Shown in pieces: positions 2,280 to 17,690 of a DNA stretch of 64,000 nt. The stretch is from Candidatus Limnocylindrales bacterium (GTDB taxonomy: Bacteria; Patescibacteriota; Microgenomatia; Levybacterales; UBA12049). The notes beneath the pieces are model-generated. The model saw only the letters and a list, made by a program, of their open reading frames with translations, was not told the origin of the DNA and did not search any database. Position 1 is the first letter of the stretch; each line of letters opens with the position of its first letter. Made by a program: the position numbers and the translations under genes. Where the stretch lies: positions 125,690-189,689 of the forward strand of contig DATLDE010000005.1 in assembly GCA_035526025.1 (NCBI GenBank). Reading direction: 5' to 3'.

Positions 2280-3094
2280 AAGTTATTCCTAAATTGGTTT
2301 TGAAAATAGGCAACCAGCTGCTTATTATTTAATTGAAGGGTCTGTATCCTTTCAAGTGCCAGTCCGCTACTAAATCTTCTCTCCATATCTTCCAGTTTTT
2401 GGGCAGCTTCTATAAATCCCTTATCACCCTGTCCTAAAAGAGGAGTTGAGAATACTGCGTAATACTTCATGATTTGGAAGTCGTTTGTTTCAATGAGATT
2501 TGATAAGTCTTTAATGTAACTTTCAATCAGCCAGTTTACTTTTTCATTGGCTGTTTCATAAAGCGAGTAAAAATGCTCATGATAATCATCAACTGTTGCT
2601 GTCTCTTTTCTTGAAATCAACTGCACTCTCATTGGAAGTGTATGTAAAACCGTTTTGATATGATTGTAGTACCGTTCGCGCTCATCATTATTTAATAGCG
2701 CGATATCAAATGGTCTAATTTCATAAATTGCGATTAGTTTTTTCTTTCTATAAATATAGTTGCCGGTAATTTTAAAGTCACCTGTAGTCTTCCCCAATTC
2801 GTTAGTTGTAAATTGCTTTTTTGAAAAGCTAAAAGATACTGCACGTGGGACAATCTTATACAAAGGCTGATGATCTATTTTAAGAGTTGCAACCAATGCA
2901 TAAAATAGTTCAAGTAAAAATATAGTTGAGACAATAATCCCGGGCTGGTTGATTTTCAAAACCAATCTATAAAAAAGTAATACAGAAACGGCGATTGTTA
3001 TTCCCAACATCAGAAACACCACAGTGTCTGTAAAAAACATTGTTCTGAAGATGTGTTCTCGTAAATTGTCTTTATATACTCTAACTGTTCTCAT
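2276..3094 (-). CDS. T4SS-associated membrane protein (VirB3-like / VirB4 N-domain-like), translationally coupled to virB4
   Basis: 272 aa; N-terminal TM helices; 4-nt overlaps at both ends (3091..3094 and 2276..2279) place it in one operon with the VirB6-like gene and virB4. Confidence 0.45.
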   Translation of the reverse strand: MRTVRVYKDNLREHIFRTMFFTDTVVFLMLGITIAVSVLLFYRLVLKINQPGIIVSTIFLLELFYALVATLKIDHQPLYKIVPRAVSFSFSKKQFTTNELGKTTGDFKITGNYIYRKKKLIAIYEIRPFDIALLNNDERERYYNHIKTVLHTLPMRVQLISRKETATVDDYHEHFYSLYETANEKVNWLIESYIKDLSNLIETNDFQIMKYYAVFSTPLLGQGDKGFIEAAQKLEDMERRFSSGLALERIQTLQLNNKQLVAYFQNQFRNNL

Positions 3095-4614
3095 AATGTG
3101 TTGTTATCGCTGGATTTATTTTGAACCTTGCTCTCTGGTCGAATAAAAGTTTTAAACTGTGGTCTGAATTCGGTTTTTGCAGCAGGGACATCCTCTTTTG
3201 ATCTTTTACTACGTGTAAAATTTGTGGCATAACTTTTGCGATTTAAGGTATCAAAAGTTGATTCCTTATTTTGTAATTTGTCAGTTTTATATTTCTGAGT
3301 ACTGGAAATAATGGGTTTTGCTGAGTCATTATTCATTTCCTGTTTTCTGCGTTTACTTTTCGCTCGTAGCTCGTCCAGAGTGAATTTTTTTGAATAATAG
3401 GGTGGATTATCATCTAATGTCTTTGCACCTTTCCTAGAGTGGTTTTGTGACTCTTCTGATCCTTTCGTACCATTTGAATAATGATCCTTAGCATCTTTAT
3501 CATTTTGCTTTACTTTTGATTGTGTTAATCCAATTTTTCGCCCAATAAATGAACCTGCATAACTCCTAACTCCTACTGATCGCCCTGTAAATGCGCCTCT
3601 TTTTACTTCATTGGTAGTGCCGGTAATTGCACGATTTCCAATCATGCTTTGCGCATTTGAGCTAACCAGTGACCATCCGTCTCCAAAAATTCTGCCGACA
3701 AAAATATTAACCCCACCTAAGAATATGAGAGAAGCAGAAAACAAAAATAGTGTTCCAATTGATCCACCGTTTGAAGAAAGGATGCTTCCCATGATAGTTG
3801 AAACGATTGCAAATCCAAGCACAAAAGCCGGTTGTTGAATAAGAAAAGTAAACCATGTTTTAAAATATGTATTGGTAATGTTTTCAGTCCGTTCGGATAG
3901 GGCAAAGGGCAAAACAAGAGGAAATATTACACTTAGAAAAAGTAGGGCAATAAAACGTATCATTGCCTGGAATACTACATACAGAAAGCCAATCATGAAA
4001 AACCCTACCGCAATAACCAATACGATAAGTTGCAAAATAGTATTTTGATTAAAGAATGATAAGGGGCTAGCGTTAAATCTTATTAAATTCCGGAAATTAT
4101 CACTGTCTACATAATTTAATACGAACGTTGCTAAGTTGTACGCGTTTTTATCGATAATTTTTTCATTGAGTAGGTTAATAAATTGAATACTATACGTTAG
4201 AATGCCAGGAGTAATAATAAAGAGCACTACTACAAAAACTAATCTTTTTAAAAAGTTTTTTAATTGCAAAGTATTATCATTTGTTATATGAGACAGGGCA
4301 ATATAAGAAATAATGAGCACAAATATAGGTATGGCAATATCAGAAAAGATTGTCCTGTATTGGCCAAGACCAGATAATTCCGTGCCATCTTTTAAATTAA
4401 TAGAGCTGTCAAGAAGGGAGGGCGTATTAAAAATAAGACCACTTGAGATCCAGTCAAAACCTGAAAAGAAATTATTTAAGACACTTGATCCGGCAGCTTG
4501 CTGCTCAGCTGTGATTTCTTGTGGAGGTGTAGGTGAGATTGTTTGAGCGTTGACTTGATTATTTAAAAAAAGAAATAAATAGAGGACTAATAGGAAGCAA
4601 CTTAGTTGTTTCAT
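3091..4614 (-). CDS. Polytopic membrane protein, VirB6/TrbL-like T4SS channel component (candidate)
   Basis: 507 aa; signal peptide 'MKQLSCFLLVLYLFLFLNNQVNAQ', at least 6 TM segments, K/R/S-rich C-terminal tail; position in T4SS operon. Confidence 0.5.
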   Translation of the reverse strand: MKQLSCFLLVLYLFLFLNNQVNAQTISPTPPQEITAEQQAAGSSVLNNFFSGFDWISSGLIFNTPSLLDSSINLKDGTELSGLGQYRTIFSDIAIPIFVLIISYIALSHITNDNTLQLKNFLKRLVFVVVLFIITPGILTYSIQFINLLNEKIIDKNAYNLATFVLNYVDSDNFRNLIRFNASPLSFFNQNTILQLIVLVIAVGFFMIGFLYVVFQAMIRFIALLFLSVIFPLVLPFALSERTENITNTYFKTWFTFLIQQPAFVLGFAIVSTIMGSILSSNGGSIGTLFLFSASLIFLGGVNIFVGRIFGDGWSLVSSNAQSMIGNRAITGTTNEVKRGAFTGRSVGVRSYAGSFIGRKIGLTQSKVKQNDKDAKDHYSNGTKGSEESQNHSRKGAKTLDDNPPYYSKKFTLDELRAKSKRRKQEMNNDSAKPIISSTQKYKTDKLQNKESTFDTLNRKSYATNFTRSKRSKEDVPAAKTEFRPQFKTFIRPESKVQNKSSDNNTL

Positions 4615-4642: not shown

Positions 4643-4900
4643 TCAATTGCCCCCAAGAAAAGTCTTTAGTACATTTGCAATAGTTGTTGATCCAAAAACT
4701 AGTAAACCACCAATTAGGATATTGAATATCCAGTGCTTAAGCCTTGCTTTTCTATCAATATCATCGCCACTTCCAACTAGGGCTATACCAATACCAGCAA
4801 TTGATAAAGCCATAACAGGTAAGGAATAGAATTGGAGTGTGGCAACTAAGCCCCAAAGGAGTAGATCTAAATTCGCAAATTGTATAGGTGTACCTTGCAT
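4643..4900 (-). CDS. Small two-TM protein, VirB2/TrbC pilin-like candidate
   Basis: 85 aa, two hydrophobic segments separated by a short charged loop; directly upstream of VirB6-like gene. Confidence 0.45.
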   Translation of the reverse strand: MQGTPIQFANLDLLLWGLVATLQFYSLPVMALSIAGIGIALVGSGDDIDRKARLKHWIFNILIGGLLVFGSTTIANVLKTFLGGN

Positions 4901-5042
4901 ATACGAAAAAAGCCCATTTATTGCTGTTGCAATAAAGGGCAGTGTCTAAGTTGAGTGAGTATAGTAGTAATTTTTACGAATGTCAATAATTAAAAACAGC
5001 TTATCCGCAATTGTCTAATTAAAATTATGATGGATGAGCGAA

Positions 5043-5678
5043 CTAACGCACGAAGATTTTTTGAATATAGGTGTAAGCTCCATTAACCCAAGTTTTAACT
5101 GATTTGGTAACGTAAGCTTGCTTAAAAGGATAATATTTGTTTATATACTTTGATTTATTTGCCCCGGTTTTGACAGCTAGTGTACTGCTCCATGGACCTG
5201 CCATGCAGCCATTACCCGCTCTTACTTTGAATGTATATCTGGTATTAGGTTTGAGTTTGTAGACATCATATTTGAGAGCGCCTGTTGTTTGGGAAAGCGC
5301 AAATGAAGCGCCATACCCCTCGTCTTTTGTTCCATCACCAAATGAGACATAATAGTTGGTGTAAGGATGTTGGGATGGCGCAAAGTAGAGAATTGCATTG
5401 GTACCGACAGTATTTATTTGAAAAAGATTAGGTGCCGAACCCGGTGCCTGAGCTGAACAACCGGGAGTGCCCGTCGTGCTGCCCTGAGTGCTAGAATTTG
5501 AATTGGAGCTTGATCCTGATGAATTTGAAGGAACGCATTGCCCATTGAAAAGGTATGAACCATATCCGCATGATCCATAAGGTGCCGCAAGAGTAGAATC
5601 TGGAAAACCAAGTGTAAAAAGTACCCCTACTAAAATAAATAATTTCCCCATTGAAAAAAGTCTATTTAAGAGCTGCAT
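5043..5678 (-). CDS. Secreted Ser-rich protein with FN3-like beta domain
   Basis: 211 aa; N-terminal hydrophobic signal; 'SSGSSSNSNSS' low-complexity linker; C-terminal FN3-like region 'YTFKVRAGNGCMAGPWSST'. Confidence 0.4.
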   Translation of the reverse strand: MQLLNRLFSMGKLFILVGVLFTLGFPDSTLAAPYGSCGYGSYLFNGQCVPSNSSGSSSNSNSSTQGSTTGTPGCSAQAPGSAPNLFQINTVGTNAILYFAPSQHPYTNYYVSFGDGTKDEGYGASFALSQTTGALKYDVYKLKPNTRYTFKVRAGNGCMAGPWSSTLAVKTGANKSKYINKYYPFKQAYVTKSVKTWVNGAYTYIQKIFVR

Positions 5679-5738
5679 ATAATTCAGTCTATATATAAAT
5701 TGTTATGAATGTCAATGAAACACAAACAAATTATTTTT

Positions 5739-6620
5739 TTAATTTGGGAAAACATAAAATGGCGTTGTCGGGGTAGGAGTGATGGTATTGCCGTCCTCAT
5801 CTGATGAAGCGGTAGGCTGGGCGCTGGCTCTGACTGCTACATCAAAACTTGCAAATACCTTGGCGGAGGGAAGCGTGGAAAAGGGAAGTGATTGCCCTGG
5901 CTGCATTGGTGTTGCGCCCTCAACCACTTTTGCTTCTTGAACATCAACCACAGAGCGGGTGCTGTCAAAAAAGGTGACAAGAGCCGTCACCCCGTAAGCG
6001 TTGCTTGGTCCTGAGTTAGTGAGCGTTCCCGTCACTTTTCTTTGTGCGCCAATCGTAGCTACCTTTTGCTCTGTTACTTTTATCATACTTTGTACATCCT
6101 GAAGTTTGTTTACTCTGTTCATCACTTCATTTTTGAGTCCAGCTACTTTTTGATCTCCAAGTACTTTATCCCTTTCTAATTGTTGCTGATATGCCAATTC
6201 CTCCACAGGACTTCTCCTTCTTTCTATCGGAAATATCATGCTTGATTCCTTACCGCGGTATGAAGAAAAGAATTTCAAAACGCTTTTGCCGACCGGTACA
6301 TTAACCATTGCCGTAAATTCTCCATTTCCGTTCTGGGCGATTTCTGCTTTGTTGCTAACTCTTAGTTTGGCATCCGAAGGCCACACTTTTCCCCTGACAT
6401 AGACTTGTTGGTCTGTAATAAGGTTTTTCTCAATAGGAGTTGTGATAGTTATGACCGGTGCTTTTACGACTTCACGTTTTCCAAAAAGCAGCAATAGCGT
6501 AGGTATTACAATGAGCGCTATCAATACTGGCTTCATTTGCACAGAAGTCTTTACATGCCAGAAAGCTTTGCGGAATGTTTTAGTGGTTTTTTTGAGTAGT
6601 TTTGTTTTTTGTGATTCCAT
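5739..6620 (-). CDS. Membrane-anchored hypothetical protein (possible T4SS periplasmic component)
   Basis: Start set at 'MESQKT' because an AAGGAGG RBS lies 6 nt upstream; single N-terminal TM; no recognisable motif. Confidence 0.35.
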   Translation of the reverse strand: MESQKTKLLKKTTKTFRKAFWHVKTSVQMKPVLIALIVIPTLLLLFGKREVVKAPVITITTPIEKNLITDQQVYVRGKVWPSDAKLRVSNKAEIAQNGNGEFTAMVNVPVGKSVLKFFSSYRGKESSMIFPIERRRSPVEELAYQQQLERDKVLGDQKVAGLKNEVMNRVNKLQDVQSMIKVTEQKVATIGAQRKVTGTLTNSGPSNAYGVTALVTFFDSTRSVVDVQEAKVVEGATPMQPGQSLPFSTLPSAKVFASFDVAVRASAQPTASSDEDGNTITPTPTTPFYVFPN

Positions 6621-6733
6621 AAAGTCCTCCTTAATACATATAATCACAAACAAGCATTAATTCCAAGTGCCATATTTTAGAAACTATTTAATAATCTTGT
6701 ATTCCGGAATCTAATTAATCTATTTTGTTTTCC

Positions 6734-6762
6734 TTGACTTTGCTTAAATCATTATATGATAA
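6734..6762 (+). promoter_or_regulatory. Sigma70-like promoter of cassette copy A (TTGACT -35, 15-17 nt spacer, TATGAT-like -10)
   Basis: Same -35/-10 arrangement conserved at 9560 and 11105 in the other cassette copies. Confidence 0.45.
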
Positions 6763-6790
6763 TGATATTAACAATGAAATTTATCAGATA

Positions 6791-6802
6791 CTCTCTCTCT
6801 CT
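6791..6802 (+). repeat. (CT)6 dinucleotide tract in 5' leader of cassette copy A
   Basis: ctctctctctct between promoter and RBS; copy B has (CT)4 and copy C has (CT)10. Confidence 0.9.
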
Positions 6803-6851
6803 GAGGAATGCCTCTTCTGTCAATCTCCACTCCGAAAGGAGCACATCCTAA

Positions 6852-9143
6852 ATGCCTAGGCTCCCAATTCCAGGTTCAGATGATGGTACATGGGGTGATA
6901 TCCTCAATGATTTCCTCACTCAGGAACACAATGCAGACGGTACCCAGAAGGCAATTCCACAGTCGAAGGTTACAAATCTTGTTAGTGACCTGGCTGGCAA
7001 GCAGGCGACAATTCCGGCAGGGACATACGTTGACACTACGACGGCGCAGAACGTCGCCGGTAAAAAGACGCTCGCCGACGATTCCATCTTCGCCTCGGGT
7101 CGACCGTGGGTAGACATTGAGGCGAAAGGAGCGGTAGTCGGAGCGGCCGACAATGGTCCAGCAATCAACTCGGCCATCTCTACTATGGCTGCGCTCGGCG
7201 GCGGCGACGTACGAATCTTCAAGTCGTACAACTTCTCAACGCCCATCGTAGGAGCCAGCGGTGTTCGTCTACTGGGCACGACCTTTCCTACCGGTGGAGC
7301 GGGCCTACCTGCCCGGTTGATCTACACGGGCTCCGGGTCAACGACAGCTATCCAGGCCGCAGGCGTCAACGGCTTCCAGTTGGAGAACCTGGCCGTGCTG
7401 TATTCCAGCAACACCTTCACGGGCGTGGTGCTCGACATGAGCCGGGTCGCGGTCGGCTGCGGCGGCAAGAACGTCTACATCGGCGCTGCCGGGCAGGCCA
7501 CGAAAACCGCTTCGGCTTGTCTGCAACTAGACCAGGCAACTACGGCGAAGTTCGAGCGGTGGTCGTTTCAGGATGCCGATCACTGCATTACCGGCAAGGC
7601 GTCCACGACCGTCGCCGCTGGCTCGAACGGGGCTGTCCTCCCGCAGGCGACGATCAATGTCGTGTCTACGGCCCGGTTCTCCTCATCGGGGACGTTTGTC
7701 ATTGGCAACAGCACGATTGCATACACCGGCACAACAGCTACATCGTTTACAGGCTGTACGGGTGGGTCGGGCACCTTGGCGACCGGGAACTTAGTCGTCA
7801 CGTATGCCAACAACATCCAGTTCGATACCTGCCACTTCATCAACGCCAACATCTCCCACGTCCACAACAGCGGCCAGGGCTGGTCCTTCATCAACTCAAC
7901 CGTCGAATACATCGTCGGAGGCGCTGCCGGTTTCTATACACACGACCCAGGCAACCGAGCCCAAGGGTTCTCGGTCCTCGGCGGCTGGTGGGGAGATGTG
8001 ACTAACGGCGGCACCCAAATAGTCTGGTCGGGAGATGGCCTGACAATTGGCGGCGGTCTCTTTCTCGGGATTGGCAACAACGCTACGGCAATACAGATTG
8101 ACGAGAACAGTTGTAACGGCTTCGACGTGTCACCCGGATGCCTAATATACGGTTTGGGCACCTGCAAAGGAATAGATTTCGGGGTCACGTCTGGACATGC
8201 CGATGTCCGCATCGCTCCGGGATGGTTTCAGGTATCAACCAAGATCGCCGGTAATGTCCCGCTCGGAGGAATAGTAGATGTTGGAACGGGACCGCAGCTC
8301 TACGGCGCGAGTTTCCTGATTGGCGGACCGCCGAACCTGATGACGGCGGACCAGGCATCATTCGAAGGCGGCATCGCTGACTGGGTACCGTTTGATGTCA
8401 CCAAGAACACGGTGGCCCGCTCGACTGCGTGGTCCGCCGACGGTGTGGCGTCTCTTTTGAGCACCACTACCGTCGCCGGTCCCCAGGATGTCCGGGTGAA
8501 CACGGCGGTAAAGGGCGTTCCTGTCTTGCCTAACACCACGTACACCGTGGTGGCAACCATGCACTCGGCTAACGCTCGCACCGTAGACCTAATCTTAACG
8601 ACATGTGACGCCTCGGGCAGCCAGGTTGGCAGCGTCCAGGTCGTCGGTAACCCGACGTTCTCAACAACGACGGCGGTTAAGACCGCCACCATCACCACCA
8701 ATGCCATAGCGGCCTATTTGCAGGTACAACCCCGTTGGTACGCTACAACAAGCGCCGATACCGGCAACGCCGTGGACAAGTTAGGTGTGTTCCTGGGGTC
8801 ATCAGTGCCCACATGGGTCCTGCCCGGCTCCAGCACGTCAATCAACGGGGCCGACATTACGACACGCTCCCTCCACGGTCCGGCCACGCTTCCACTGCTG
8901 ATCAACCCGATCGGGTCCGGCACTGGCGGAACGGTGTTTGGGGACGGCGCCGGGAACGTTCAGGCGACCATTCTGAACGGTATCCAGGTGCAGACCGGCT
9001 CTCGTCTCTTTTCCGGTGCGGGAGCGCCGAACGTGCCGGGGTCAGTTGCCGGGGACTTCTACCTGAGAACCGACACGCCGTCGACATCACTCCAACGGAT
9101 CTACGTCGCTACAGCGGCCAACACATGGACTGGCATCCTGTAA
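6852..9143 (+). CDS. Large beta-helix (pectate-lyase/tailspike-like) protein with conserved low-GC N-terminal module and about 65% GC body
   Basis: 763 aa; first 54 aa almost identical to ORF 11229..13307; 'AINSAISTMAALGGGDVRIF...GASGVRLLG' resembles N-terminus of right-handed beta-helix (pectate lyase 3-like) proteins; Gly/Thr/Ala-rich; GC rises sharply after about codon 55 and drops again at the stop codon; numerous antisense ORFs are high-GC artefacts. Confidence 0.7.
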   Translation: MPRLPIPGSDDGTWGDILNDFLTQEHNADGTQKAIPQSKVTNLVSDLAGKQATIPAGTYVDTTTAQNVAGKKTLADDSIFASGRPWVDIEAKGAVVGAADNGPAINSAISTMAALGGGDVRIFKSYNFSTPIVGASGVRLLGTTFPTGGAGLPARLIYTGSGSTTAIQAAGVNGFQLENLAVLYSSNTFTGVVLDMSRVAVGCGGKNVYIGAAGQATKTASACLQLDQATTAKFERWSFQDADHCITGKASTTVAAGSNGAVLPQATINVVSTARFSSSGTFVIGNSTIAYTGTTATSFTGCTGGSGTLATGNLVVTYANNIQFDTCHFINANISHVHNSGQGWSFINSTVEYIVGGAAGFYTHDPGNRAQGFSVLGGWWGDVTNGGTQIVWSGDGLTIGGGLFLGIGNNATAIQIDENSCNGFDVSPGCLIYGLGTCKGIDFGVTSGHADVRIAPGWFQVSTKIAGNVPLGGIVDVGTGPQLYGASFLIGGPPNLMTADQASFEGGIADWVPFDVTKNTVARSTAWSADGVASLLSTTTVAGPQDVRVNTAVKGVPVLPNTTYTVVATMHSANARTVDLILTTCDASGSQVGSVQVVGNPTFSTTTAVKTATITTNAIAAYLQVQPRWYATTSADTGNAVDKLGVFLGSSVPTWVLPGSSTSINGADITTRSLHGPATLPLLINPIGSGTGGTVFGDGAGNVQATILNGIQVQTGSRLFSGAGAPNVPGSVAGDFYLRTDTPSTSLQRIYVATAANTWTGIL

Positions 9144-9559
9144 CTATCGCCCGCCACCTCACCTAGACGGTAAAGTTATTATTTAATAGTAAATTAAACA
9201 AATTTCAGTCTCTAGCTTGACTACCTCATCTAGTTCTGAAAAGGTGATTAAAGTATGAAAGAGCAATATGGTTTCTTGATTGATCTATCTGGTATTCAGT
9301 TTAATGAAGATGCGCCAACGTGGATTCAGGCATTTCCGGTGCATTGCCCGCCACGTTTAGTTCAACGGTTGCAGTTGCCTCCCACGCACATCGTATATTT
9401 ATACGAGCAGCTTGATATATAAATTAAAAGTCTTGCATACAGGCTTTATAGTATGTCTTAATTAACCTATGGCAAAATTACTAGTTTCGGGCTCAGATAA
9501 CTGGACTTTGGGAAAAGTAAATCTTGCTACATCTGTTCGGACGTAAGATGTCTATCCGC

Positions 9560-9723
9560 TTGACTTCCTTTAGATATTTATACAATAATGATATTGACAT
9601 GAATAATTCTCTCTCTTTGAGAATTCCTCTATCTCTACTTCTCATCCCGAAAGGAGCACATCCTAAATGGCAAGACTTCCAGTACTAGGTTCAGACGATG
9701 GCACATGGGGTGATATTTACTAA
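9560..9723 (+). pseudogene. Decayed cassette copy B: promoter, (CT)4, RBS and an 18-codon N-terminal remnant (MARLPVLGSDDGTWGDIY*)
   Basis: Sequence parallels copies A and C through TTGACT, 'caataatgatatt', CT tract, 'gaaaggagcacatcctaaATG' and the PGSDDGTWGD codons, then a stop at 9721..9723; runs directly into tatC. Confidence 0.75.
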
Positions 9724-9777
9724 ATTCTTCACATTGCTTAGTTGCTAATTCGTGGGATATACTTAATAAAGAATACT

Positions 9778-10602
9778 ATGACTGCCCAACACACACCGCT
9801 TGAGGAAAAGACATTTGGTGAACATCTCTCAGAACTCCGGACCCGTTTGATGGTATCAGTTTTTTGTGTTGGGTTAGGGGCCACAGTTGCTTACTTTTTC
9901 AATAAAGAAATTCTCGCGTTTCTCGTGCGTCCTCTTGGCGGACCGCTGTATTACACTACGCCTGCCGGCGGATTTGATCTAGTATTTAAAATATCACTTT
10001 TTTCAGGGATATTTATCGCGTCCCCCATCCTTGTGTATCAATTCCTTGCTTTTCTGGAACCGGTCATTCCGCAAAGAACATCCTCATCCTTACGGCAATT
10101 TCTCCTGGCGTCATGGGCGCTACTTATCGCAGGTGCAGCAGTTGCATACTACCTTAGTCTTCCGGCAGCATTGAAACTGCTTAATGAATTTAGTTCAGAT
10201 CAGGTAAAAGCAATCATCTCAACTAAAGATTATTTCTCGTTTGTGATATCTTACCTTGGTGGATTTGCGTTCGTTTTCCAGCTTCCTGTTGTTATGCTGC
10301 TTCTGAATAAAATCACACCGCTTCACCCCAAGAAACTTTCACATTACATCAGACATGTTGTGTTGTTGAGTTTTATAATCGCAGCAATACTTACCCCAAC
10401 ACCTGATCCTGTCAATCAGGCAATTATGGCAGCACCCCTTATCGTTCTCTATCTTTTATCAATTTTCTTCATATGGCTGGTCAACGTATCTAAAAGGCCA
10501 AAAGTAGTTAAACAAAAATTTCTTTTTGTGGATGCAGATCATCCGGTTATTTACAAAGAGAAAATTAAGAGGCACCAAAGATATCTAAAAAGGGGATACT
10601 GA
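9778..10602 (+). CDS. tatC: Twin-arginine translocase subunit TatC
   Basis: 'MTAQHTPLEEKTFGEHLSELRTRLMVSVF...' matches the TatC N-terminal signature (hLxELRxRL), 6 TM segments; ORF-table start 9742 is TTG, ATG at 9778 is more likely. Confidence 0.85.
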   Translation: MTAQHTPLEEKTFGEHLSELRTRLMVSVFCVGLGATVAYFFNKEILAFLVRPLGGPLYYTTPAGGFDLVFKISLFSGIFIASPILVYQFLAFLEPVIPQRTSSSLRQFLLASWALLIAGAAVAYYLSLPAALKLLNEFSSDQVKAIISTKDYFSFVISYLGGFAFVFQLPVVMLLLNKITPLHPKKLSHYIRHVVLLSFIIAAILTPTPDPVNQAIMAAPLIVLYLLSIFFIWLVNVSKRPKVVKQKFLFVDADHPVIYKEKIKRHQRYLKRGY

Positions 10603-10685
10603 CCAATAGTTGGGAGCTGATTAGGCAATAATATTATGCTATTGACAAGTACAGCAAAAGTAATCTACGATGAGTATATAATCAT

Positions 10686-10865
10686 ATGTTTGGATTAGGA
10701 ATGCAAGAATTAGTCATTATTTTGGTCATCCTGCTTCTTCTTTTTGGAGGAAAGAAGTTGCCTGAATTATCACGAAGCATTGGACAATCTATAAAAGATA
10801 TTCGCAAAGGCTTTTCAGATGAACCACATGAGAGAAAAAAAGATGATAGCGGGAATAATTCTTAG
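10686..10865 (+). CDS. tatA: Twin-arginine translocase subunit TatA/E (59 aa; below ORF-track cutoff)
   Basis: Hand-translated: MFGLGMQELVIILVILLLLFGGKKLPELSRSIGQSIKDIRKGFSDEPHERKKDDSGNNS*; TM helix plus 'FGxKKLPELxRSxGxSIKxxxKGF' amphipathic region is the TatA signature; 80 nt downstream of tatC. Confidence 0.8.
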   Translation: MFGLGMQELVIILVILLLLFGGKKLPELSRSIGQSIKDIRKGFSDEPHERKKDDSGNNS

Positions 10866-10885
10866 AAATTTTATAGAGATACATT

Positions 10886-11077
10886 ATGGTTAAAAAAAAT
10901 CTGCAGCAATTACTAGAAAAAAGAATGACCCGCAAGAAATTTATTGCAACAAGCGGGATGATGGCACTTACAGTACTGGGAGTTACAGGAACCCTTAAGA
11001 AGATCACAGAGCTGCCTCAGGCAGAAAACACCACACCCAAATCAAACGGTTTTGGCTCAAGCCCCTACGGAAAATAG
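10886..11077 (+). CDS. Small protein with Tat-like signal peptide (T-R-K-K-F-I-A ... hydrophobic core)
   Basis: 63 aa; 'MTRKKFIATSGMMALTVLGVTG' resembles S/T-R-R-x-F-L-K Tat motif (RK variant) followed by h-region; immediately after tatA. Confidence 0.35.
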   Translation: MVKKNLQQLLEKRMTRKKFIATSGMMALTVLGVTGTLKKITELPQAENTTPKSNGFGSSPYGK

Positions 11078-11104
11078 TAGTAACATAACCCTATAATTTT
11101 CCAC

Positions 11105-11133
11105 TTGACTTTTTTCTAAATTCTATACAATAA
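11105..11133 (+). promoter_or_regulatory. Sigma70-like promoter of cassette copy C (TTGACT ... TACAAT)
   Basis: Conserved with copies A and B. Confidence 0.45.
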
Positions 11134-11161
11134 TGATATTAACAATGAAATTTATCAATTA

Positions 11162-11181
11162 CTCTCTCTCTCTCTCTCTCT
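11162..11181 (+). repeat. (CT)10 dinucleotide tract in 5' leader of cassette copy C
   Basis: 20-nt perfect CT repeat; length differs from copies A and B. Confidence 0.9.
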
Positions 11182-11228
11182 GAGAAACCCTCTATATTTA
11201 CTTCTCATCCTGAAAGGAGCATCTCCTA

Positions 11229-13307
11229 ATGCCTAGACTGCCAGTACCCGGTTCTGATGACGGCACCTGGGGCGATGTACTTAATGACTTCCTCTCGCAA
11301 GAGCATAATGCAGATGGTACACAAAAGGCACTTGCTCAATCAAAAGTTACCAACCTTGTCAGTGACTTGGCAGGCAAGCAAGCGACTATTGCTCCTGGCA
11401 CTTATGCGGTGGCGGCGTCGGCCCTCGGCGGGGTCAGCGTGGAGGCGCATGGCGTCACAGCAGTTACCTCACCCGCCTTCAACACCACCGCCATCAACGC
11501 CGCCATCACTGCTGCCATCGCCGCCGGCACGAAACTTGTCACGTTCGCCCGCTCCTACCACTTCGACGGCACTCTGCTTATCGGCGCCAGTGGCATCCGG
11601 TTCCTGGGTGCCAGCCCAGACACAGCAGTGGCGCTCGGCTACACGGGCACCGGCGTGGCCATCCAGATCGGCACTGACAACGGCAATGCACACGACGCGA
11701 ATGAGTACAACGGGCCATACGGCTTCACCATGGAGAATCTCACCCTATTCACCGTCAGCCCGGCCACGGCGCTGGACAACGGGATGGGCAACTACAAAGA
11801 CGGGACCTACGGGATCAGAGACTGGCGTGGGGGGCACGTAACGCTCAAGCACGTTCGCATCACCGGATTCGACTTCCCGTTCTGGGGGATCCAGAGCGAT
11901 ATCAACTTTTGGTCGGATGTGACCTTCCAGTTCAACCACTCTGGGGTTTACCTCGGCCCTCGCTCTGACCAGCTCACCGCAGACGCCGTCCTGTTTCTCC
12001 AGAACGACCGGGCGCTGGACATCGATTCGGCTTGGCAGGCCAAACTCAGCGGCTGCGTCTTCGTCGGCAACGGCACGGCGGCGACCAACCCTGTTCGCAT
12101 CCGCTCACAGTTCAGCCGCGGCGCTTCCGATGTCACGTTCAACGACCCTTGGTTCGAGCATATAACAATCGGCCCGACCAACCTGGAGGCGTTCATTGAA
12201 GTAGGAGTCGGGGACAGCACCCGCACCAAGGGTATCTCGGTCAGGAATCCCTTGGTGCTTACCGGCACCACCGCCGAGGCTGTCCACGCCAAGCACCTCA
12301 TCAAGATCGACCAGGCTGATCACATTGAAGTGGACATCGCCACCGGCACCTTCCTGACCAGCCTCGACAACATCGTCAAGGTAGTCACCAACACCGGCAC
12401 CAGCCCGCAGGTGTCCTGCCGAATGCCCCATGACCTCACCCTCGCCGCCCCGGCGAAATACCTCAAGACGGGCAGTGTCACCCCGGCGTTCGTGCTGGTC
12501 GATTGGGGCAGTCAAGGCTGGGGACTGTCGGACGGCACCGGCCGGGAGTCCATGCGGATGAAGCCGGGGACCGCCCCCATCCTTGATATCGTGGACCCAC
12601 TGACCGGCTTCAACACCCACCGGATGACGTGGACGACCCAGGACGCCGGGCAGCTCTTCATCGACCTCAACCAAACGACCTCACAGGTTCACATCCGAGA
12701 CGGCATTGGTAGCGGGAATGACCTCTTTCGTGTCCAGCCCTCGACCGGGGCCTACATCCCGGGCGGCGTGGACCCGAACGCTCTCACGACGGGTGAGTCG
12801 ACAATCCGGCGTCGGGATATCGATACCAACGGCATCTCCCAGGGCAGCACGACCCTCCGTGTTGCCTATTTCACCGCAGGGAAAACCGAGACGATCACTC
12901 AGGTTCGGTTTATTTCGGGCGGCACGGCGGCAGGGGCGACCCCGACCATTTGCCGCATCGGCATCTGGACCGCCGACGCGGCCGGGGCACTCCTGTCCCT
13001 GGTGGCGTCCACGACCAATGACACGACCCTGTGGGCAGCCGCAGCGACCGTCTACACCAAAGCACTCACGGCGTCCTTCACCAAAGTGGTCGGCCAGCGC
13101 TACGCCGTGGGTACTCTCGTCGTCTCCGCAGCCGCCACCCCGACCACCGTGGGGACGAACGGTGTCGGCGGGCTGCCCGCTGCTGAGGCCGGTCTGTCGC
13201 CCCGAATGAGTGGGACGGTTGCAGGGCAATCCAACCTTCCCGCCAGCGTGGTCGCTGGCAGCATCTCCGACAACGCAAGCGCCGTCTACGTCGTGCTCTT
13301 GCCGTGA
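11229..13307 (+). CDS. Second large beta-helix (pectate-lyase/tailspike-like) protein with the same low-GC N-terminal module and a different high-GC body
   Basis: 692 aa; N-term 'MPRLPVPGSDDGTWGDVLNDFLSQEHNADGTQKALAQSKVTNLVSDLAGKQATI' matches copy A; then 'AINAAITAAIAAGTKLVTFARSYHFDGTLLIGASGIRFLG' (pectate-lyase-like beta-helix start); body unrelated in detail to copy A; high GC persists about 40 nt past the stop. Confidence 0.7.
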   Translation: MPRLPVPGSDDGTWGDVLNDFLSQEHNADGTQKALAQSKVTNLVSDLAGKQATIAPGTYAVAASALGGVSVEAHGVTAVTSPAFNTTAINAAITAAIAAGTKLVTFARSYHFDGTLLIGASGIRFLGASPDTAVALGYTGTGVAIQIGTDNGNAHDANEYNGPYGFTMENLTLFTVSPATALDNGMGNYKDGTYGIRDWRGGHVTLKHVRITGFDFPFWGIQSDINFWSDVTFQFNHSGVYLGPRSDQLTADAVLFLQNDRALDIDSAWQAKLSGCVFVGNGTAATNPVRIRSQFSRGASDVTFNDPWFEHITIGPTNLEAFIEVGVGDSTRTKGISVRNPLVLTGTTAEAVHAKHLIKIDQADHIEVDIATGTFLTSLDNIVKVVTNTGTSPQVSCRMPHDLTLAAPAKYLKTGSVTPAFVLVDWGSQGWGLSDGTGRESMRMKPGTAPILDIVDPLTGFNTHRMTWTTQDAGQLFIDLNQTTSQVHIRDGIGSGNDLFRVQPSTGAYIPGGVDPNALTTGESTIRRRDIDTNGISQGSTTLRVAYFTAGKTETITQVRFISGGTAAGATPTICRIGIWTADAAGALLSLVASTTNDTTLWAAAATVYTKALTASFTKVVGQRYAVGTLVVSAAATPTTVGTNGVGGLPAAEAGLSPRMSGTVAGQSNLPASVVAGSISDNASAVYVVLLP

Positions 13308-13381
13308 CCCGCCTCCGCATAATGCCGGCTGGGTGCGGTCAAATTATTGGATATTACCCTAAACCATATTTTAATTAGTCT

Positions 13382-13423
13382 ATGACACAATTACCGGTAC
13401 CCGGTTCAGATAATGGTACATAG
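13382..13423 (+). pseudogene. Cassette remnant D (MTQLPVPGSDNGT*), 13 codons
   Basis: Retains the LPVPGSD(D/N)GT codons of the conserved N-terminal module, then a stop; lies 170 nt upstream of the coupling-protein gene. Confidence 0.6.
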
Positions 13424-13596
13424 AATATGTTTAAAAGACTCAAGTGTTTATTAATAAATTAAGCAGAATATAAACAAACCATGATTCTCCTCTCCCATTC
13501 ATAATGTACAAAAGTTTTCTTTTCTGATATTATCAGCTTCATCTAAAACACTGTCCTCTTTAGAGAAAATCCTGCCTAGAAATATAGATACTGTTT

Positions 13597-16320
13597 ATGC
13601 CAACAAAATACATATCATTTCTTGCAGATCTTCCGGTATATTTAATTTTCCTCTCATGCATAACATTTACTTTGCTCATCGCTTATCTTATAACGCGACA
13701 CATATTGCTAAAAAGGAAACTCAATACCCCACATGTTGTTCTTTCAATTAAACCAATCAAGCAAACACTCCAGAGTTCCTATGCTACAGAGCAGTTATTT
13801 ACCCAACTCCATTCACTCATTAAAGGAAAAACATTCTGGCAAAGATTTATGCATGACAAAACATCAATAAGCGTTGAACTAGTTGCAACCAAAGAAGAGG
13901 GAATCCGCTACCTCATTCGCACAAATAAATCTGATGTTTCAGTTATCCGAAAAGCTATCCTGTCATATTTACCAAGTGTTGAGATAGAGGAGGTAGAAGA
14001 TTACCTGCCGCAATCAATCTCAGCTGTGAACAATTTCCTTAAAACAAATAAAGAAATAAGAGTTGTGATTTTTCGCCTATCAAATCACTTCGCAATTCCA
14101 TTAACAGATCAGAAACAACTTGATGAGCATGATCCGATTGCCTATCTCACAGGAAATATGACAAAACTCGCGCGTGAGGAGCTCGTTTCTTTGCAATTAA
14201 TTATTTCTCCGATGGATAAAGCAAGTAACAGAACTAAAACAAATGAAATAAATAGCTTGCTGTCTCATTTATTTCACAGTAAGGATATTTCCAATGTTAT
14301 TAAACATAACAGATTGCTTTCAATCCTTGTTTTCCCAATCAATGCGATTAGTAAATTAATTTACTTAACTCTTGGATTATTGATTGAAATTGTTGGTTAT
14401 ATAGCTGATATTGCAATGAGTAATAGTAACAACCAACAAAGTCCTCGTGACAATTCACAGGCTAAACTTAAAAAAATCTTTACCCCAACAGTCACTCAGC
14501 AAGTGTTATTCGGTCAAGTACATAACAAGCTACAACAGCCAATGTTTGAAACAAGTATGAGGCTTCTTGTAGCTGGCAATAGCTCAGATGCTGTTAGTGA
14601 GCGTATCAGAGGATTTAGAGCAAGTCTCGCAACATTTGATAATACACAATATCAGGCAATTATTCCAAGGCGATCAATCTCAATTCTACCTAAAAAGATC
14701 AAACAATATATTTTGTTTTTCTCACTATACCAAATTGGCAATAGACTGTTGTCTTTCTCTCACAATATTTTCCTCTCAATAAATGAGCTATCAAGTATCT
14801 ATCATTTGCCTTACACCCAAACAACCAAAACTGAGGATATGGTTAAAAGTAAAAGCAAAGAGCTGCCTGCTCCCCATTCATTTAAAAAAGCAGCAACACA
14901 ATTTGATGTTATAGTTGGTACTAATACATATGGTGGTGAACAGACAAAAGTTGGTTTGCCAGTAAGCAACCGCAAAGAGCATACATACATTGTCGGTAAA
15001 ACAGGAACCGGTAAAACAACGATTATTGAGGGAATGGCTCTACAAGACATAACAAATGGCAAAGGAATAGCTGTCATTGATCCCCATGGAGATTTGATTG
15101 AGCATTTACTAACTCTAATTCCTAAAAACAGACTTAAAGATGTGGTACTTGTTAATCCAGCAGATAAAGATTATCCATTGGGACTGAATATCCTCTCCCC
15201 CGGAACGCATTTTTCTGATGTCGATGAGGAAAACGGATTCATAACAAGAAGTCTTATGGCTGTGTTCATGAAAATTACACCTGATAAACATTGGGGGCAG
15301 AGAATGGAGCATATACTCAGAAACGCAACGCTTACTGCCTTAAAGGCACCTACACCAACACCTGAAACACCATATATTTCCTTGCTTTCTATTCAGAAAC
15401 TTCTAACTGACAGTAATTACCGTAGACGAATTACTCAAACCCTAACTGATCCGGTATTAAAACAGTTCTGGGAAAAAGAATATAGCTCATATGGAAAGTT
15501 TCAGCAGGCTGATGCCGCATCTCCTTTGACAAATAAGCTGGGAGGATTTATGACTGATAAGATGTCAAGAAATATCCTGCTTCAGGAAAAAAGTACAATT
15601 AATGTTTCAGAAATAATGGACCAGGAAAAGATTCTTCTTGTGAATCTATCAAAGGGCAAACTGGGAGAGGAGAGAAGTGCATTCTTTGGCACCTTAATGC
15701 TTTCCCTTATCCAACTGGCTGTATATGCAAGGGCTGAAATACCAGAAAAAGAAAGGCGCGATTTCTTTGTTTACATCGATGAATTCCAGAACTTTGCAAG
15801 CACGCACTTTACCGATCTTTTTTCAGAAGCACGAAAGTATCATGTATATTTCATGCCATCTCACCAAAACATTGCCCAAATTGAAGATCCCAAATTATCA
15901 AAAGTTGTATTAAGTAATAGCGGGAATTTAATAGCTCTTAAGAATGGACCGGATGATGAAAGGATTCTTTTACCTTTTCTTGAGCCTGAAGTAGAAAAAG
16001 GATCAATTGTTAATCTTTCCCCTCACCACTTCTACATGAAAGTAACCAATGAATACTCAGAAGATGCATTCTCGGGTGAAACCATACCGATAACAGAGCA
16101 AGGAAGCAGTAAAACAGCAATGGCAATTGTAGAAAATTCAAGAAGTAATTACGCTACTCCAAAAGCCGTAGCTGAGAAACAATTGGAAAAGTTGTTTTTG
16201 GAAATTAAGAAAGAAGTGAAACCCAAAAAAACGGATGGAGATATACAGCAAACGAAACAAAAACCAGCTGCAAAACAAGCAAAAATTACGAAGAAAAAGA
16301 TCAAAAAACAAGAAATATAA
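13597..16320 (+). CDS. Type IV coupling protein (VirD4/TraG/TraD family)
   Basis: 907 aa; N-terminal TM helices; Walker A 'VGKTGTGKTT'; Walker B-like 'FFVYIDEFQNF'; K-rich C-terminal tail. Confidence 0.8.
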   Translation: MPTKYISFLADLPVYLIFLSCITFTLLIAYLITRHILLKRKLNTPHVVLSIKPIKQTLQSSYATEQLFTQLHSLIKGKTFWQRFMHDKTSISVELVATKEEGIRYLIRTNKSDVSVIRKAILSYLPSVEIEEVEDYLPQSISAVNNFLKTNKEIRVVIFRLSNHFAIPLTDQKQLDEHDPIAYLTGNMTKLAREELVSLQLIISPMDKASNRTKTNEINSLLSHLFHSKDISNVIKHNRLLSILVFPINAISKLIYLTLGLLIEIVGYIADIAMSNSNNQQSPRDNSQAKLKKIFTPTVTQQVLFGQVHNKLQQPMFETSMRLLVAGNSSDAVSERIRGFRASLATFDNTQYQAIIPRRSISILPKKIKQYILFFSLYQIGNRLLSFSHNIFLSINELSSIYHLPYTQTTKTEDMVKSKSKELPAPHSFKKAATQFDVIVGTNTYGGEQTKVGLPVSNRKEHTYIVGKTGTGKTTIIEGMALQDITNGKGIAVIDPHGDLIEHLLTLIPKNRLKDVVLVNPADKDYPLGLNILSPGTHFSDVDEENGFITRSLMAVFMKITPDKHWGQRMEHILRNATLTALKAPTPTPETPYISLLSIQKLLTDSNYRRRITQTLTDPVLKQFWEKEYSSYGKFQQADAASPLTNKLGGFMTDKMSRNILLQEKSTINVSEIMDQEKILLVNLSKGKLGEERSAFFGTLMLSLIQLAVYARAEIPEKERRDFFVYIDEFQNFASTHFTDLFSEARKYHVYFMPSHQNIAQIEDPKLSKVVLSNSGNLIALKNGPDDERILLPFLEPEVEKGSIVNLSPHHFYMKVTNEYSEDAFSGETIPITEQGSSKTAMAIVENSRSNYATPKAVAEKQLEKLFLEIKKEVKPKKTDGDIQQTKQKPAAKQAKITKKKIKKQEI

Positions 16321-16463: not shown

Positions 16464-17255
16464 ATGACAATACCCTACATAACTAACAAACAACAAGAAA
16501 TAATAAATATAACCTCCCGATTCAGATTCCTAAATAGATTACAGATTCAAAAACTCCTAAACCATAAAGACTATAAAACAATAAATATGTGGTTAAAAGA
16601 TTTAGTAACAAAAGAATACCTAATAAGAATTTACGACAAAACTACATTTGGACAAAATACCAAACTAGCTATATATTACATAGGAATTAATGGTATCAGA
16701 TTTTTAAAAATACTAGATGATTATTCACCTGAGCTAGTCAGAAGACTATACAGAGACAAAGACAGATCAGAAAATTTTATAAATCAGTGTTTACTCTTAG
16801 CTGATGCATGTCTTACTCTCCGGGATCAAAGCAAAAATGGAATATCCTACAGCTTTACACTTGAGAGCAATTATATAAATCCTGACTCAGAATTCAATTT
16901 CCTTCAGGAACTTCATCCAAATCTAATTTTCACAAAACAAAAAAACAAAAGCATAAAACATTATTTAGTTGAAGCTCTTGAGCCAACACTTCCCCGTTAC
17001 TCAATTAGAAAAAGAATGAGAGACTATATAGATTTTTATTACTGTAACGAGTGGGAAAACAATATGGATAATATAGCTTTTCCAATAATCCTGGTTATTT
17101 GCTCTACCAAAGCTATTATGATTGCTACCAAGCGCTACACTAAAAAACTTCTTGTGGACAATCAACAACCTGAAGATCTATATATCAGGTTTGCAACGAT
17201 TAACGAGGTAAAAGAGCATGGGATAACCGGGGAGATTTGGGAAGAGTCTGAGTAA
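16464..17255 (+). CDS. Replication-relaxation family protein (candidate)
   Basis: 263 aa; N-terminal wHTH-like pattern 'EIINITSRFRFLNRLQIQKLL...WLKDLVTKEYLIRI' typical of Replic_Relax proteins; adjacent to T4CP. Confidence 0.45.
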   Translation: MTIPYITNKQQEIINITSRFRFLNRLQIQKLLNHKDYKTINMWLKDLVTKEYLIRIYDKTTFGQNTKLAIYYIGINGIRFLKILDDYSPELVRRLYRDKDRSENFINQCLLLADACLTLRDQSKNGISYSFTLESNYINPDSEFNFLQELHPNLIFTKQKNKSIKHYLVEALEPTLPRYSIRKRMRDYIDFYYCNEWENNMDNIAFPIILVICSTKAIMIATKRYTKKLLVDNQQPEDLYIRFATINEVKEHGITGEIWEESE

Positions 17256-17310: not shown

Positions 17311-17640
17311 CTAAACCTGTGCTTGATGCTGGCTCTTTATCTCTGAAAGCCTGCAAAGCTTAAAATATAAATCACGTTCTATTGGTAAACTTAAAATTCC
17401 ATTTACACCGCTTTTAGCACTCTTCAACTGGCTAAGGGTAAAGTATCCAAGTTCTGAGTCGTGGCCTACAACATAACCAAAGAAAAGAAAATCATCATCC
17501 GCTTCCTCTCCTTCAGTTGCATACCATGTCCATGATCCTGTTGGGTCAAAAAACTTGATATACACCATTGGATCTCTCTCTTTCTCTTGAGCATAAAGAG
17601 CCGGAAGCTTCTCTTTAAGTTCTACTGTTAATAATTCCAT
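17311..17640 (-). CDS. DUF2958-family protein (conjugative-element associated)
   Basis: 'MELLTVELKEKLPALYAQE...VYIKFFDPTGSWTWYATEGEE...FFGYVVGHDSELGYFTLSQL...IERDLYF' matches the DUF2958 pattern; start at MELL preceded by GGAGGTGA RBS. Confidence 0.7.
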   Translation of the reverse strand: MELLTVELKEKLPALYAQEKERDPMVYIKFFDPTGSWTWYATEGEEADDDFLFFGYVVGHDSELGYFTLSQLKSAKSGVNGILSLPIERDLYFKLCRLSEIKSQHQAQV

Positions 17641-17672
17641 ATTCTCACCTCCTTTCTCATAATTGTTTTTGT

Positions 17673-17690
17673 CGGGCATGCCCATGCCCG
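17673..17690. promoter_or_regulatory. Perfect inverted repeat cgggcatg-cc-catgcccg upstream of DUF2958 gene (operator candidate)
   Basis: 8-bp arms with 2-nt centre; GC-rich in an AT-rich intergenic region, 30 nt upstream of the start. Confidence 0.4.

Follow-up and report, generated by a model that had tools for sequence, protein, structure and literature searches.

Host recognition by Patescibacteria (candidate phyla radiation, CPR) is largely unexplained, and the hosts of nearly all lineages are unknown. Module swapping of the tail-fibre type is already known, as is the use of phage-like fibres by predatory or epibiotic bacteria. In Bdellovibrio bacteriovorus, which itself lives off other bacteria, the MAT genes encode a multigene set of phage-like trimeric fibres in which an invariant N-domain, presumed to bind the producer surface, is combined with swappable tips, some of them tailspike-like; the fibres start with a Sec signal peptide, followed by a beta-rich N-domain of ~130 aa (PMC10769870). 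The Tat (twin-arginine translocation) pathway moves folded and oligomeric proteins and co-exports signal-less partners (PMC6708511, PMC4273604). Here we analysed a stretch of 64,000 nt from contig DATLDE010000005.1 (assembly GCA_035526025.1, positions 125,690 to 189,689; "the window" below means this whole 64-kb stretch), in which two genes, A and C, join a conserved 54-codon N-terminal module (N-module) to bodies of much higher GC content. The N-module was found to head a large and almost entirely patescibacterial family with a conserved Tat neighbourhood, and the bodies of A and C resemble, in sequence, tail proteins of high-GC contigs from actinophage-type phages. In the literature searched, we found neither the family nor its link to Tat nor the actinophage-like captures described.

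The window contains four copies of the module, A to D, and no further copy anywhere in its 64 kb. Two of them head intact genes and two are decayed. The first-pass annotation had proposed such a repeat, made up of promoter, (CT)n tract, ribosome-binding site (RBS) and N-terminal module, and the alignment of the copies confirmed it. The copies and the parts of the two genes are as follows (ORF, open reading frame; GC3, GC content at third codon positions).

6720-6851, + strand: upstream unit of copy A, with TTGACT at 6734-6739, GATAAT at 6758-6763, the conserved box, (CT)6 at 6791-6802 and the RBS GAAAGGAG
6852-9143, + strand: gene A, intact ORF of 763 aa
6852-7013, + strand: N-module of gene A, codons 1-54, native-like composition (GC 0.48, GC3 ~0.38)
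7014-9143, + strand: body of gene A, high-GC and putatively tailspike-like (GC 0.602, GC3 0.71)
9555-9723, + strand: copy B, full upstream unit and 18-codon N-module stump, directly 5' of tatC
11091-11228, + strand: upstream unit of copy C, with TTGACT at 11105-11110, AATAAT, the conserved box, (CT)10 at 11162-11181 and the RBS
11229-13307, + strand: gene C, intact ORF of 692 aa
11229-11390, + strand: N-module of gene C, codons 1-54 (GC 0.49, GC3 0.39)
11391-13307, + strand: body of gene C, high-GC, predicted beta-helix and C-terminal domain (GC 0.636, GC3 0.81)
13382-13423, + strand: copy D, 13-codon N-module stump, promoter unit absent

The upstream units share the order TTGACT, 18 nt, [GA]ATAAT, a conserved 26-nt box, the (CT)n tract, GAAAGGAG and ATG, and the three copies (6720-6851, 9555-9666 and 11091-11228) aligned at 73-87% identity in the analysis of repeat families, alignment and promoter scan. 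The CT repeat number is 6 in A (6791-6802), 4 in B (9609-9616) and 10 in C (11162-11181); the tract sits between the -10 box and the RBS, where a change of length would leave the reading frame unshifted. An Rfam scan of 6500-13700 at E<=1 gave zero matches, and the three 5' leaders folded no more stably than shuffled sequence (z-scores of +0.7 to +1.2), so that a structured leader or riboswitch is absent. JGI metagenomes, searched for exact copies of the conserved 28-nt leader box, returned 0 matches.

Stump B (ATG 9667, TAA 9721-9723; 18 codons, MARLPVLGSDDGTWGDIY) keeps residues 1-16 of the module, and stump D (ATG 13382, TAG 13421-13423; 13 codons, MTQLPVPGSDNGT) keeps residues 1-12 with substitutions and is probably the remnant of the next gene in a tandem array. 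A comparable 41-aa stump lies downstream of an intact family gene in a related Levyibacteriota locus (L020), and such short stumps are common in databases, as a profile search of 5.8 billion proteins with the 54-aa module returned only proteins of 31-95 aa. The N-modules of A and C are identical at 49 of 54 residues, yet 31 of the 54 codons differ, indicating that the two modules are old and strongly constrained and not recent duplicates.

GC content is 0.48-0.49 in the two N-modules, 0.602 in body A, 0.636 in body C and 0.358 in the remaining window, so the bodies are GC-rich as first described, though at slightly less than the 65% then given. Over whole genes, GC3 reaches 0.69 in A and 0.77 in C, against 0.24-0.44 in 18 other genes of the window. 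Two-segment maximum likelihood placed the GC3 change-point at codon 45 in A (0.38 to 0.71, support 43-65) and at codon 59 in C (0.39 to 0.81, support 56-61), and both breaks fall within or just past the stretch ...SDLAGKQATI-xx-GTY. The low GC level is regained 30-45 nt past the stop codons of A and C, in agreement with the drop reported at or just beyond the stops. A and C are thus in-frame compositional chimeras with mapped break-points, in which two unrelated bodies, foreign in composition, follow in frame on a conserved N-module; the location of the join at or near ...SDLAGKQATI/xxGTY was also recognised at first pass.

This composition sets A and C apart from most of their relatives. Across 151 family genes that come from 133 loci and encode at least 150 aa, the GC3 of the body minus that of the module had a median of +0.06, and only 6 of the 151 (4%; L010, L028, L043, L102/L103 and L122) combined a GC3 jump of at least 0.30 with a body GC at least 0.08 above the flanks. 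The window holds two such chimeric genes side by side, with the largest body-to-flank contrast (~+0.25). The other possibility raised in the first-pass annotation, an ordinary paralogous family of uniform GC, therefore describes the N-module family at large but not A and C. In the closest low-GC relative found (L089), tatC is followed by two genes for a small Tat-signal-like protein (TSP; not to be confused with the phage CBA120 tailspikes that bear the same initials) and by an N-module gene in which the same junction, SDLAGKQATIPSGTY, leads into a GDSL body of native GC (GC3 0.35). This arrangement is the expected pre-swap state of the locus.

The AlphaFold2 (AF2) model of C has a predicted local distance difference test (pLDDT) score >90 for nearly all of residues ~90-400 and shows a right-handed beta-helix over residues ~70-450, while the N-module is modelled with helix and short-strand content. 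A Foldseek search of the PDB with this model found 41 chains at E 9e-8 to 1e-3, most of them phage tailspikes or depolymerases, with 7vz3 (E 9e-8), 6e1r, 8iq9 and the CBA120 TSPs at the top; the structural matches comprise Depo32, Acinetobacter and Klebsiella tailspikes, CBA120 TSP2/3, Sf6 and phi29 gp12. Against BFVD, the model matched viral pectate-lyase-superfamily and tailspike proteins at E down to 1e-10. TM-scores were low (0.2-0.37) because whole chains were compared. Model and matches together show the predicted fold of C to be a right-handed beta-helix of the tailspike-depolymerase type, in line with the tailspike or pectate-lyase-like body first suggested for this gene.

PDB sequences yielded no significant match to A or C, and sequence relatives of C were found among phage proteins. 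The best (P0121; BLASTP, 42% identity over residues 109-692, E 9e-132) is encoded on a phage contig of 50 kb and 67.5% GC, between the genes for the major tail protein and for a head protein; the contig also carries portal, capsid and adaptor genes. Further full-length relatives (P0125 and P0128) also lie on phage contigs of 65-67% GC, and in its last 215 residues (478-692), C shares 45-47% identity with the minor tail protein gp30 of Gordonia phage LonelyBoi.

The body of A was matched by BLASTP over residues 72-707 to P0005 (E 8e-51), a protein that matches PF12708 at E 3.5e-15 and whose gene adjoins a Gp77-family gene on a 69% GC phage contig. It also matches phrog_4406 and phrog_30699 and has a phage-type C-terminal tip, with a weak CBM_4_9 match at residues 502-625; against deposited INPHARED phages, it gave no match. 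For A, the beta-helix first proposed for both genes may apply, as indicated indirectly by the PF12708 match of P0005. Residues 250-320 of A (7599-7811) form a domain of ~70 residues containing AAGSNGAVLPQATINVVSTARFSSSGTFVIGNSTIAYTGTTATSFTGCTGGSGTLATGNLV, with pLDDT ~97, which is absent from the closest homologue P0005 and recurs, often in tandem, in >100 large uncharacterised proteins, many labelled PF16190 'E1_FCCH' (precomputed). It looks like a mobile insert domain.

All four of these relatives (P0121, P0125, P0128 and P0005) are encoded in the structural modules of 65-69% GC phage contigs, with gene GC3 of 0.86-0.91. The capsid proteins of these contigs are of actinophage type: that of L081 has relatives almost only in phages of Mycobacterium, Gordonia, Microbacterium, Streptomyces and Arthrobacter, and that of L084 is matched best by Streptomyces phages and also by Bacillus and other phages. 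These comparisons show, at the level of sequence, that the bodies are related to tail proteins encoded on high-GC contigs of actinophage-type phages; such tail proteins, and not the captured host chromosomal genes once considered, are their nearest relatives. In a Saccharibacteria genome of 44% GC (L010), an N-module is fused to a 68% GC SGNH hydrolase (body GC3 0.87), and the phage genes that match it best are Gordonia phage genes annotated as 'hydrolase' (72% of the query aligned, at 31% identity). L010 is a second example of what is seen in A and C.

The first-pass annotation called the module a 'socket'. It is not confined to this locus but heads a family of at least 3,400 clusters, mostly of uniform native GC. 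The motif MxRLPxPGxDxGxWGxxLNxxL...H.xDG..K stands at the N-terminus of at least 527 matches in GTDB species representatives, the best 80 of which are nearly all labelled Saccharibacteria/Saccharimonadales, Levyibacteriota, Parcubacteria or 'Patescibacteria group', and at least 518 matches were found in JGI metagenomes. A profile search of 1.84 billion cluster representatives returned 6,532 proteins at E<=1e-3, of which 3,401 reach E<=1e-10, each standing for a cluster at 50% identity. The module occupies residues 1-53 in almost all of the profile matches listed, and protein length ranges from 86 to 2,763 aa. A and C scored E 5e-29 and 6e-29 in this search and carry every family-invariant residue (R3, L4, P5, D10, W14, G15, L18, N19, L22 and G30). 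Residues 34-53 reappear as an internal repeat in some members, indicating that the module consists of an N-cap (1-33) and a first stalk repeat (34-53). Searches of Pfam, NCBIfam and PDB sequences with the N-module gave no match.

A census of C-terminal domains in 106 full-length members, made on the ORFs of related loci, counted DUF5907 (22), BppL_N (20), pectate-lyase-like (16), Beta_helix (9) and GDSL (8), together with phage tail repeat (PTR), collagen, ConA-type lectin, YadA head and phage depolymerase C domains. This repertoire is that of phage receptor-binding proteins. The family is almost entirely patescibacterial, modular and similar to phage receptor-binding proteins, with both membership and modularity shown.

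Outside Patescibacteria, the module was found at the N-terminus of proteins from five Streptomyces phages, at 44-65% identity. In one of them, GiJojo gp34, it is followed by the start of a beta-helix, and the protein is 34% identical to residues 1-132 of A. In these ~113-kb phages, the N-module genes lie among tRNA arrays, outside the tail block (L087, BRock, 4791-5738; L088, GiJojo, 4956-6398). The annotated coding sequence of BRock overlaps a tRNA-Lys gene and has its N-module starting only at residue 71, from which we suppose that the annotated start is probably too far upstream. A 65-aa ORF of Mycolicibacterium agri (P0250), a cultured actinobacterium with a 6.08-Mb genome, opens with a clear N-module, MARLPIVNGDDGTWGDILNDYLLQAHKSDG; the module thus reaches Actinomycetota genomes, in this case presumably as a prophage or transfer remnant.

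The genes around the array pointed to protein export. Those between and beside the module copies are as follows.

5043-5678, - strand: fn3-domain protein with a Sec-type signal peptide (Pfam fn3, E 4e-8; hydrophobic N-terminus)
9742-10602, + strand: tatC (Pfam TatC, E 8e-54; TIGR00945, E 9e-49)
10686-10865, + strand: tatA (Pfam TatA_B_E, E 4.5e-15; TIGR01411)
10886-11077, + strand: TSP, 63 aa, containing MTRKKFIATSGMMALTVLGVTG and a C-terminal GFGSSPYGK

The genes that recur beside the N-module are tatA and tatC, one for an fn3 protein, transcribed divergently, and one for a TSP of 58-93 aa. Of 162 loci, 39 have a Tat gene or TSP within 6 kb, as do 25 of the 79 that are at least 10 kb long; ~1-2% would be expected by chance for a ~1-Mb genome with one Tat locus (binomial P < 1e-20). 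The ranking of the loci by their similarity to a copy beside Tat inflates the observed fraction. Homologues of the fn3 gene adjoin tatA/tatC in 12 of the first 80 loci. The cluster of Tat and N-module genes is present in Parcubacteria (L001), Levyibacteriota (L020) and many Saccharibacteria, showing that the Tat synteny of the family is conserved. The window has the order tatC-tatA, and tatA-tatC prevails in related loci.

The motif [STD]R[KRQS]x[FL][LI], mostly with R-K rather than R-R, was found in 30 of 33 TSP homologues from related loci. The TSP further has a moderately hydrophobic stretch and a C-terminal GYGxSxYG. In the TSP of the window, T-R-K-K-F-I precedes such a stretch, with a Kyte-Doolittle hydropathy (KD) of 1.85. 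In 8 loci, the stop codon of the TSP lies on the start codon of the N-module or within 3 nt of it, and the two genes would there be coupled in translation. The two tandem TSP paralogues of L089 lie at 855-1258, between tatC and the N-module gene, and no recognisable tatA is present between them on this 4.4-kb contig. A and C themselves have no hydrophobic segment in their first ~55 residues and no signal peptide: for windows starting at residues 1-60, the maximum KD(15) is 0.47 in A and 1.25 in C, the latter at residue 57, past the module. In addition, stump B leaves the whole family promoter and leader ~20-55 nt 5' of tatC (9555-9778), and tatC-tatA-TSP may now be transcribed, via copy B, from the same type of promoter as the spike genes.

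Based on these results, we consider it probable, with a fair amount of room for doubt, that A and C act at the surface as fibres or spikes, that their C-terminal parts are exchanged by recombination at the module end, here for actinophage-like DNA, and that they are exported folded through Tat. The N-module, under strong purifying selection, would most likely dock the protein to a conserved partner, and the rest would be interchangeable, as beta-helix depolymerase, SGNH/GDSL esterase, lectin, or collagen or DUF5907 stalk. New C-terminal parts could enter by recombination in the ...LAGK...GTY stretch at the module end, which is also found in the N-termini of phage tail fibres, e.g. AIAGKAATNHAHSGTYVP of P0124. 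Recombination between tandem copies would leave stumps such as B and D. Both intact bodies in this 36% GC genome would then have been replaced by high-GC DNA, most likely from tail-spike genes of Actinomycetota phages or prophages, and the Streptomyces phages with N-module and beta-helix architecture could supply the homology for the crossover. From the missing signal peptide of A and C and the genomic coupling to tatA/tatC and the TSP, we infer that folded, probably trimeric spikes cross the membrane via Tat, piggy-backing on the TSP or through a dedicated recognition step. On the outside, they might bind and cut or de-esterify the envelope polysaccharide of a high-GC host or neighbour cell. 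A bolder version is conceivable, though we hold it to be doubtful: a dedicated, hitherto undescribed Patescibacteria system for export and display, in which signal-less trimers of phage descent, recognised by the N-module, pass the membrane in the folded state by means of TatAC and the mini-protein and are re-armed with binding or depolymerase modules from phages of the bacterium's own high-GC hosts. If so, symbiont and phage would target the same surface glycans of the host, and the cassette of each genome would predict its host.

Several observations weigh against the reading of A and C as Tat-exported spikes with captured phage heads, in addition to the ranking bias mentioned above. The AF2 model of A has a mean pLDDT of 48 and is unusable outside residues 250-320, and A itself reaches no Pfam beta-helix threshold. 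Neither A nor C has a twin-arginine signal or a TIGR01409 match, the only Arg of this region being at position 3, and since phage proteins without a need of export have the N-module too, it is not itself an export signal. TIGR01409 matched the TSP weakly (E 0.02-0.07, two homologues). Over its full length, the TSP matches NF038009, the 'twin-arginine translocation system-associated protein' (TatB_1), at E 3e-13 in the window and, with homologues included, at 1e-13 to 1e-16, yet the scores of 48-58 bits stay under the curated cutoff of 100 bits; the TSP could be a component of the translocase rather than an escort. With regard to the donor, the high-GC bodies of L102 and L043 had no match among deposited phages, and the nearest candidates are 31-47% identical at best, so that 'actinophage' denotes the nearest sampled lineage and not a demonstrated source. 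Finally, the contig, 280 kb long and with locus tags VM077_01960 and VM077_01985, bears the NCBI label 'Candidatus Limnocylindrales', and we assigned it to Patescibacteria by synteny and similarity only; the distribution of the N-module family points the same way. TatC, TatA and the fn3 protein are 52%, 71% and 53% identical, respectively, to those of a Levyibacteriota metagenome-assembled genome (L020) with the same gene order, and, the window being at 36% GC, the contig is probably one of Patescibacteria that was mis-binned or mislabelled. Another 'Limnocylindria' SMAG bin (L074) also carries an N-module locus.

The strongest rival to capture from phages, though an unlikely one, is exchange within Patescibacteria only, by which the bodies would come from higher-GC N-module genes and the phage likeness would reflect ancient ancestry of the family. 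The beta-helix core of C recurs, at 43% identity across 262 aa, in an N-module gene of a Saccharibacteria genome of ~55% GC (L005), which is a further point against a phage donor and the reason to reckon with this rival; many family members of 50-58% GC genomes have a body GC3 of 0.6-0.7, and the shared module is an obvious crossover site. However, the GC3 of C (0.81) and of the L010 body (0.87) is above that of every other family body sampled, and the likeness of C to P0121 runs through residues 109-692 to the last residues, at E 9e-132, whereas the likeness to L005 is restricted to the core. The C-terminal domain of C, moreover, matches Gordonia phage tail proteins.

A second rival treats A and C as accessory proteins, adhesins or effectors, of the type IV secretion system (T4SS) encoded around them, as also proposed at first pass. 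In the window, the array does lie inside a T4SS locus, between VirB4 and VirB6 (3091-4614) on one side and VirD4 (13597-16320) on the other, as was noted at first pass, and L010 has VirD4 homologues on both sides of its N-module gene. As a conserved context this failed: VirD4 or VirB4 was found within 6 kb at just 2 of the 162 related loci, the window and L010, while the conserved partners are Tat, TSP and fn3 and the neighbours are otherwise housekeeping genes. We therefore regard an accessory role in the T4SS as improbable. Window and L010 also share VirD4 and a 263-aa protein. Beyond VirD4, the window encodes a weak Replic_Relax (relaxase-like) match at 16464-17255 (E 1.5e-4), a DUF2958 protein at 17311-17685 and a 943-aa SMC/AAA_21-like ATPase at 17918-20749, suggesting that the T4SS genes are part of a conjugative or DNA-transfer element.

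Tail fibres of a prophage or phage remnant, belonging to a phage of the Patescibacteria cell and docked by the module to its baseplate, would account for the domain repertoire, with its BppL_N, PTR and depolymerase C domains typical of phage receptor-binding proteins, and for the N-module in five Streptomyces phages. This reading is very improbable. The 111 genes that neighbour family members are housekeeping genes, e.g. for glycosyltransferases, GTPases, EF-P and EF-G, with zero phage structural genes among them and no phage genes in the flanks of the window; among 2.9 million IMG/VR contigs, just 1 was found to carry the module, whereas cellular genomes gave more than 500 matches, and genomes carry several scattered copies, one of them at the Tat locus across phyla.

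To an assembly chimera or contaminant, with the high-GC segments mis-joined from another organism, we give hardly any credence: the high-GC taxon label of the NCBI bin (Limnocylindrales) implies high-GC DNA in the sample, but the reading frames are continuous, the joins fall at homologous codons of the conserved module, both bodies return to low GC at both ends, comparable chimeras occur elsewhere (L010, L028, L043, L102/L103), and the Logan assembly of SRR8554898, made by another assembler, probably from the same reads and hence not fully independent, has a contig of 9,657 bp on which the fn3 gene, A, tatC, the gene for the 63-aa protein and C follow in identical order, the products of A and C being exactly identical to those of the window. 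A Rhs-like toxin locus was rejected, as Pfam and NCBIfam searches of A and C found no RHS/YD repeats, other trafficking domains or toxin domains and no immunity genes are present, a stump and tatC lying downstream of A and a stump and virD4 downstream of C; of the C-terminal displacement first proposed, tail-fibre-style swapping was upheld and the analogy with Rhs or polymorphic toxins was dropped.

With thousands of members, predicted phage-type heads for binding or cutting glycans, a conserved module for putative docking and a conserved export neighbourhood, the N-module family is a candidate apparatus for contact of Patescibacteria with their hosts. A and C add that DNA of quite another composition, with relatives among actinophage tail proteins, can take the place of a head. 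Such replacement suggests a route by which an epibiont may borrow host specificity from phages, and hosts might then be predictable from sequence. If the Tat linkage is functional, it would be an unusual use of Tat, with phage-like spikes exported via an escort protein that is only a signal. The locus also offers a clean case, within a reduced genome, of in-frame chimerism whose break-points are mapped.

Compared with known systems, Rhs and contact-dependent inhibition (CDI) polymorphic toxins likewise have a conserved N-terminal part, variable C-termini and truncated remnants of recombination, but the stumps found here are N-terminal remnants and not orphan C-terminal cassettes. The TSP and its homologues, which adjoin tatA/tatC, match NF038009, and that entry, judging by its name, makes no connection to the N-module family. 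In Tat 'hitchhiker' co-export (E. coli HybOC and PaoABC; PMC4273604, PMC6708511), a signal-less protein is encoded beside its signal-bearing partner, as would be the case here, where tatA/tatC are adjacent as well; unlike those partners, the candidate here has 58-93 aa, would be almost only a signal and mostly bears R-K, and its interaction with the spikes is a predicted one. Mosaic phage tailspikes and fibres, such as the CBA120 TSPs, Klebsiella depolymerases and actinophage minor tail proteins, share with C its predicted fold and with the family the plan of a conserved N-terminal anchor and an exchangeable body, as well as the domain vocabulary, and their bodies are directly homologous; in contrast to them, the family genes are chromosomal, without phage structural neighbours, present in many copies per genome, and linked to Tat rather than to a virion. 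Compared with the MAT fibres of B. bacteriovorus, the N-module is short (~54 aa), appears unrelated in sequence, lacks a signal peptide and lies in a Tat neighbourhood. We thus regard the resemblance to MAT as functional analogy and not family membership, and MAT as the nearest functional analogue of the spikes proposed here.

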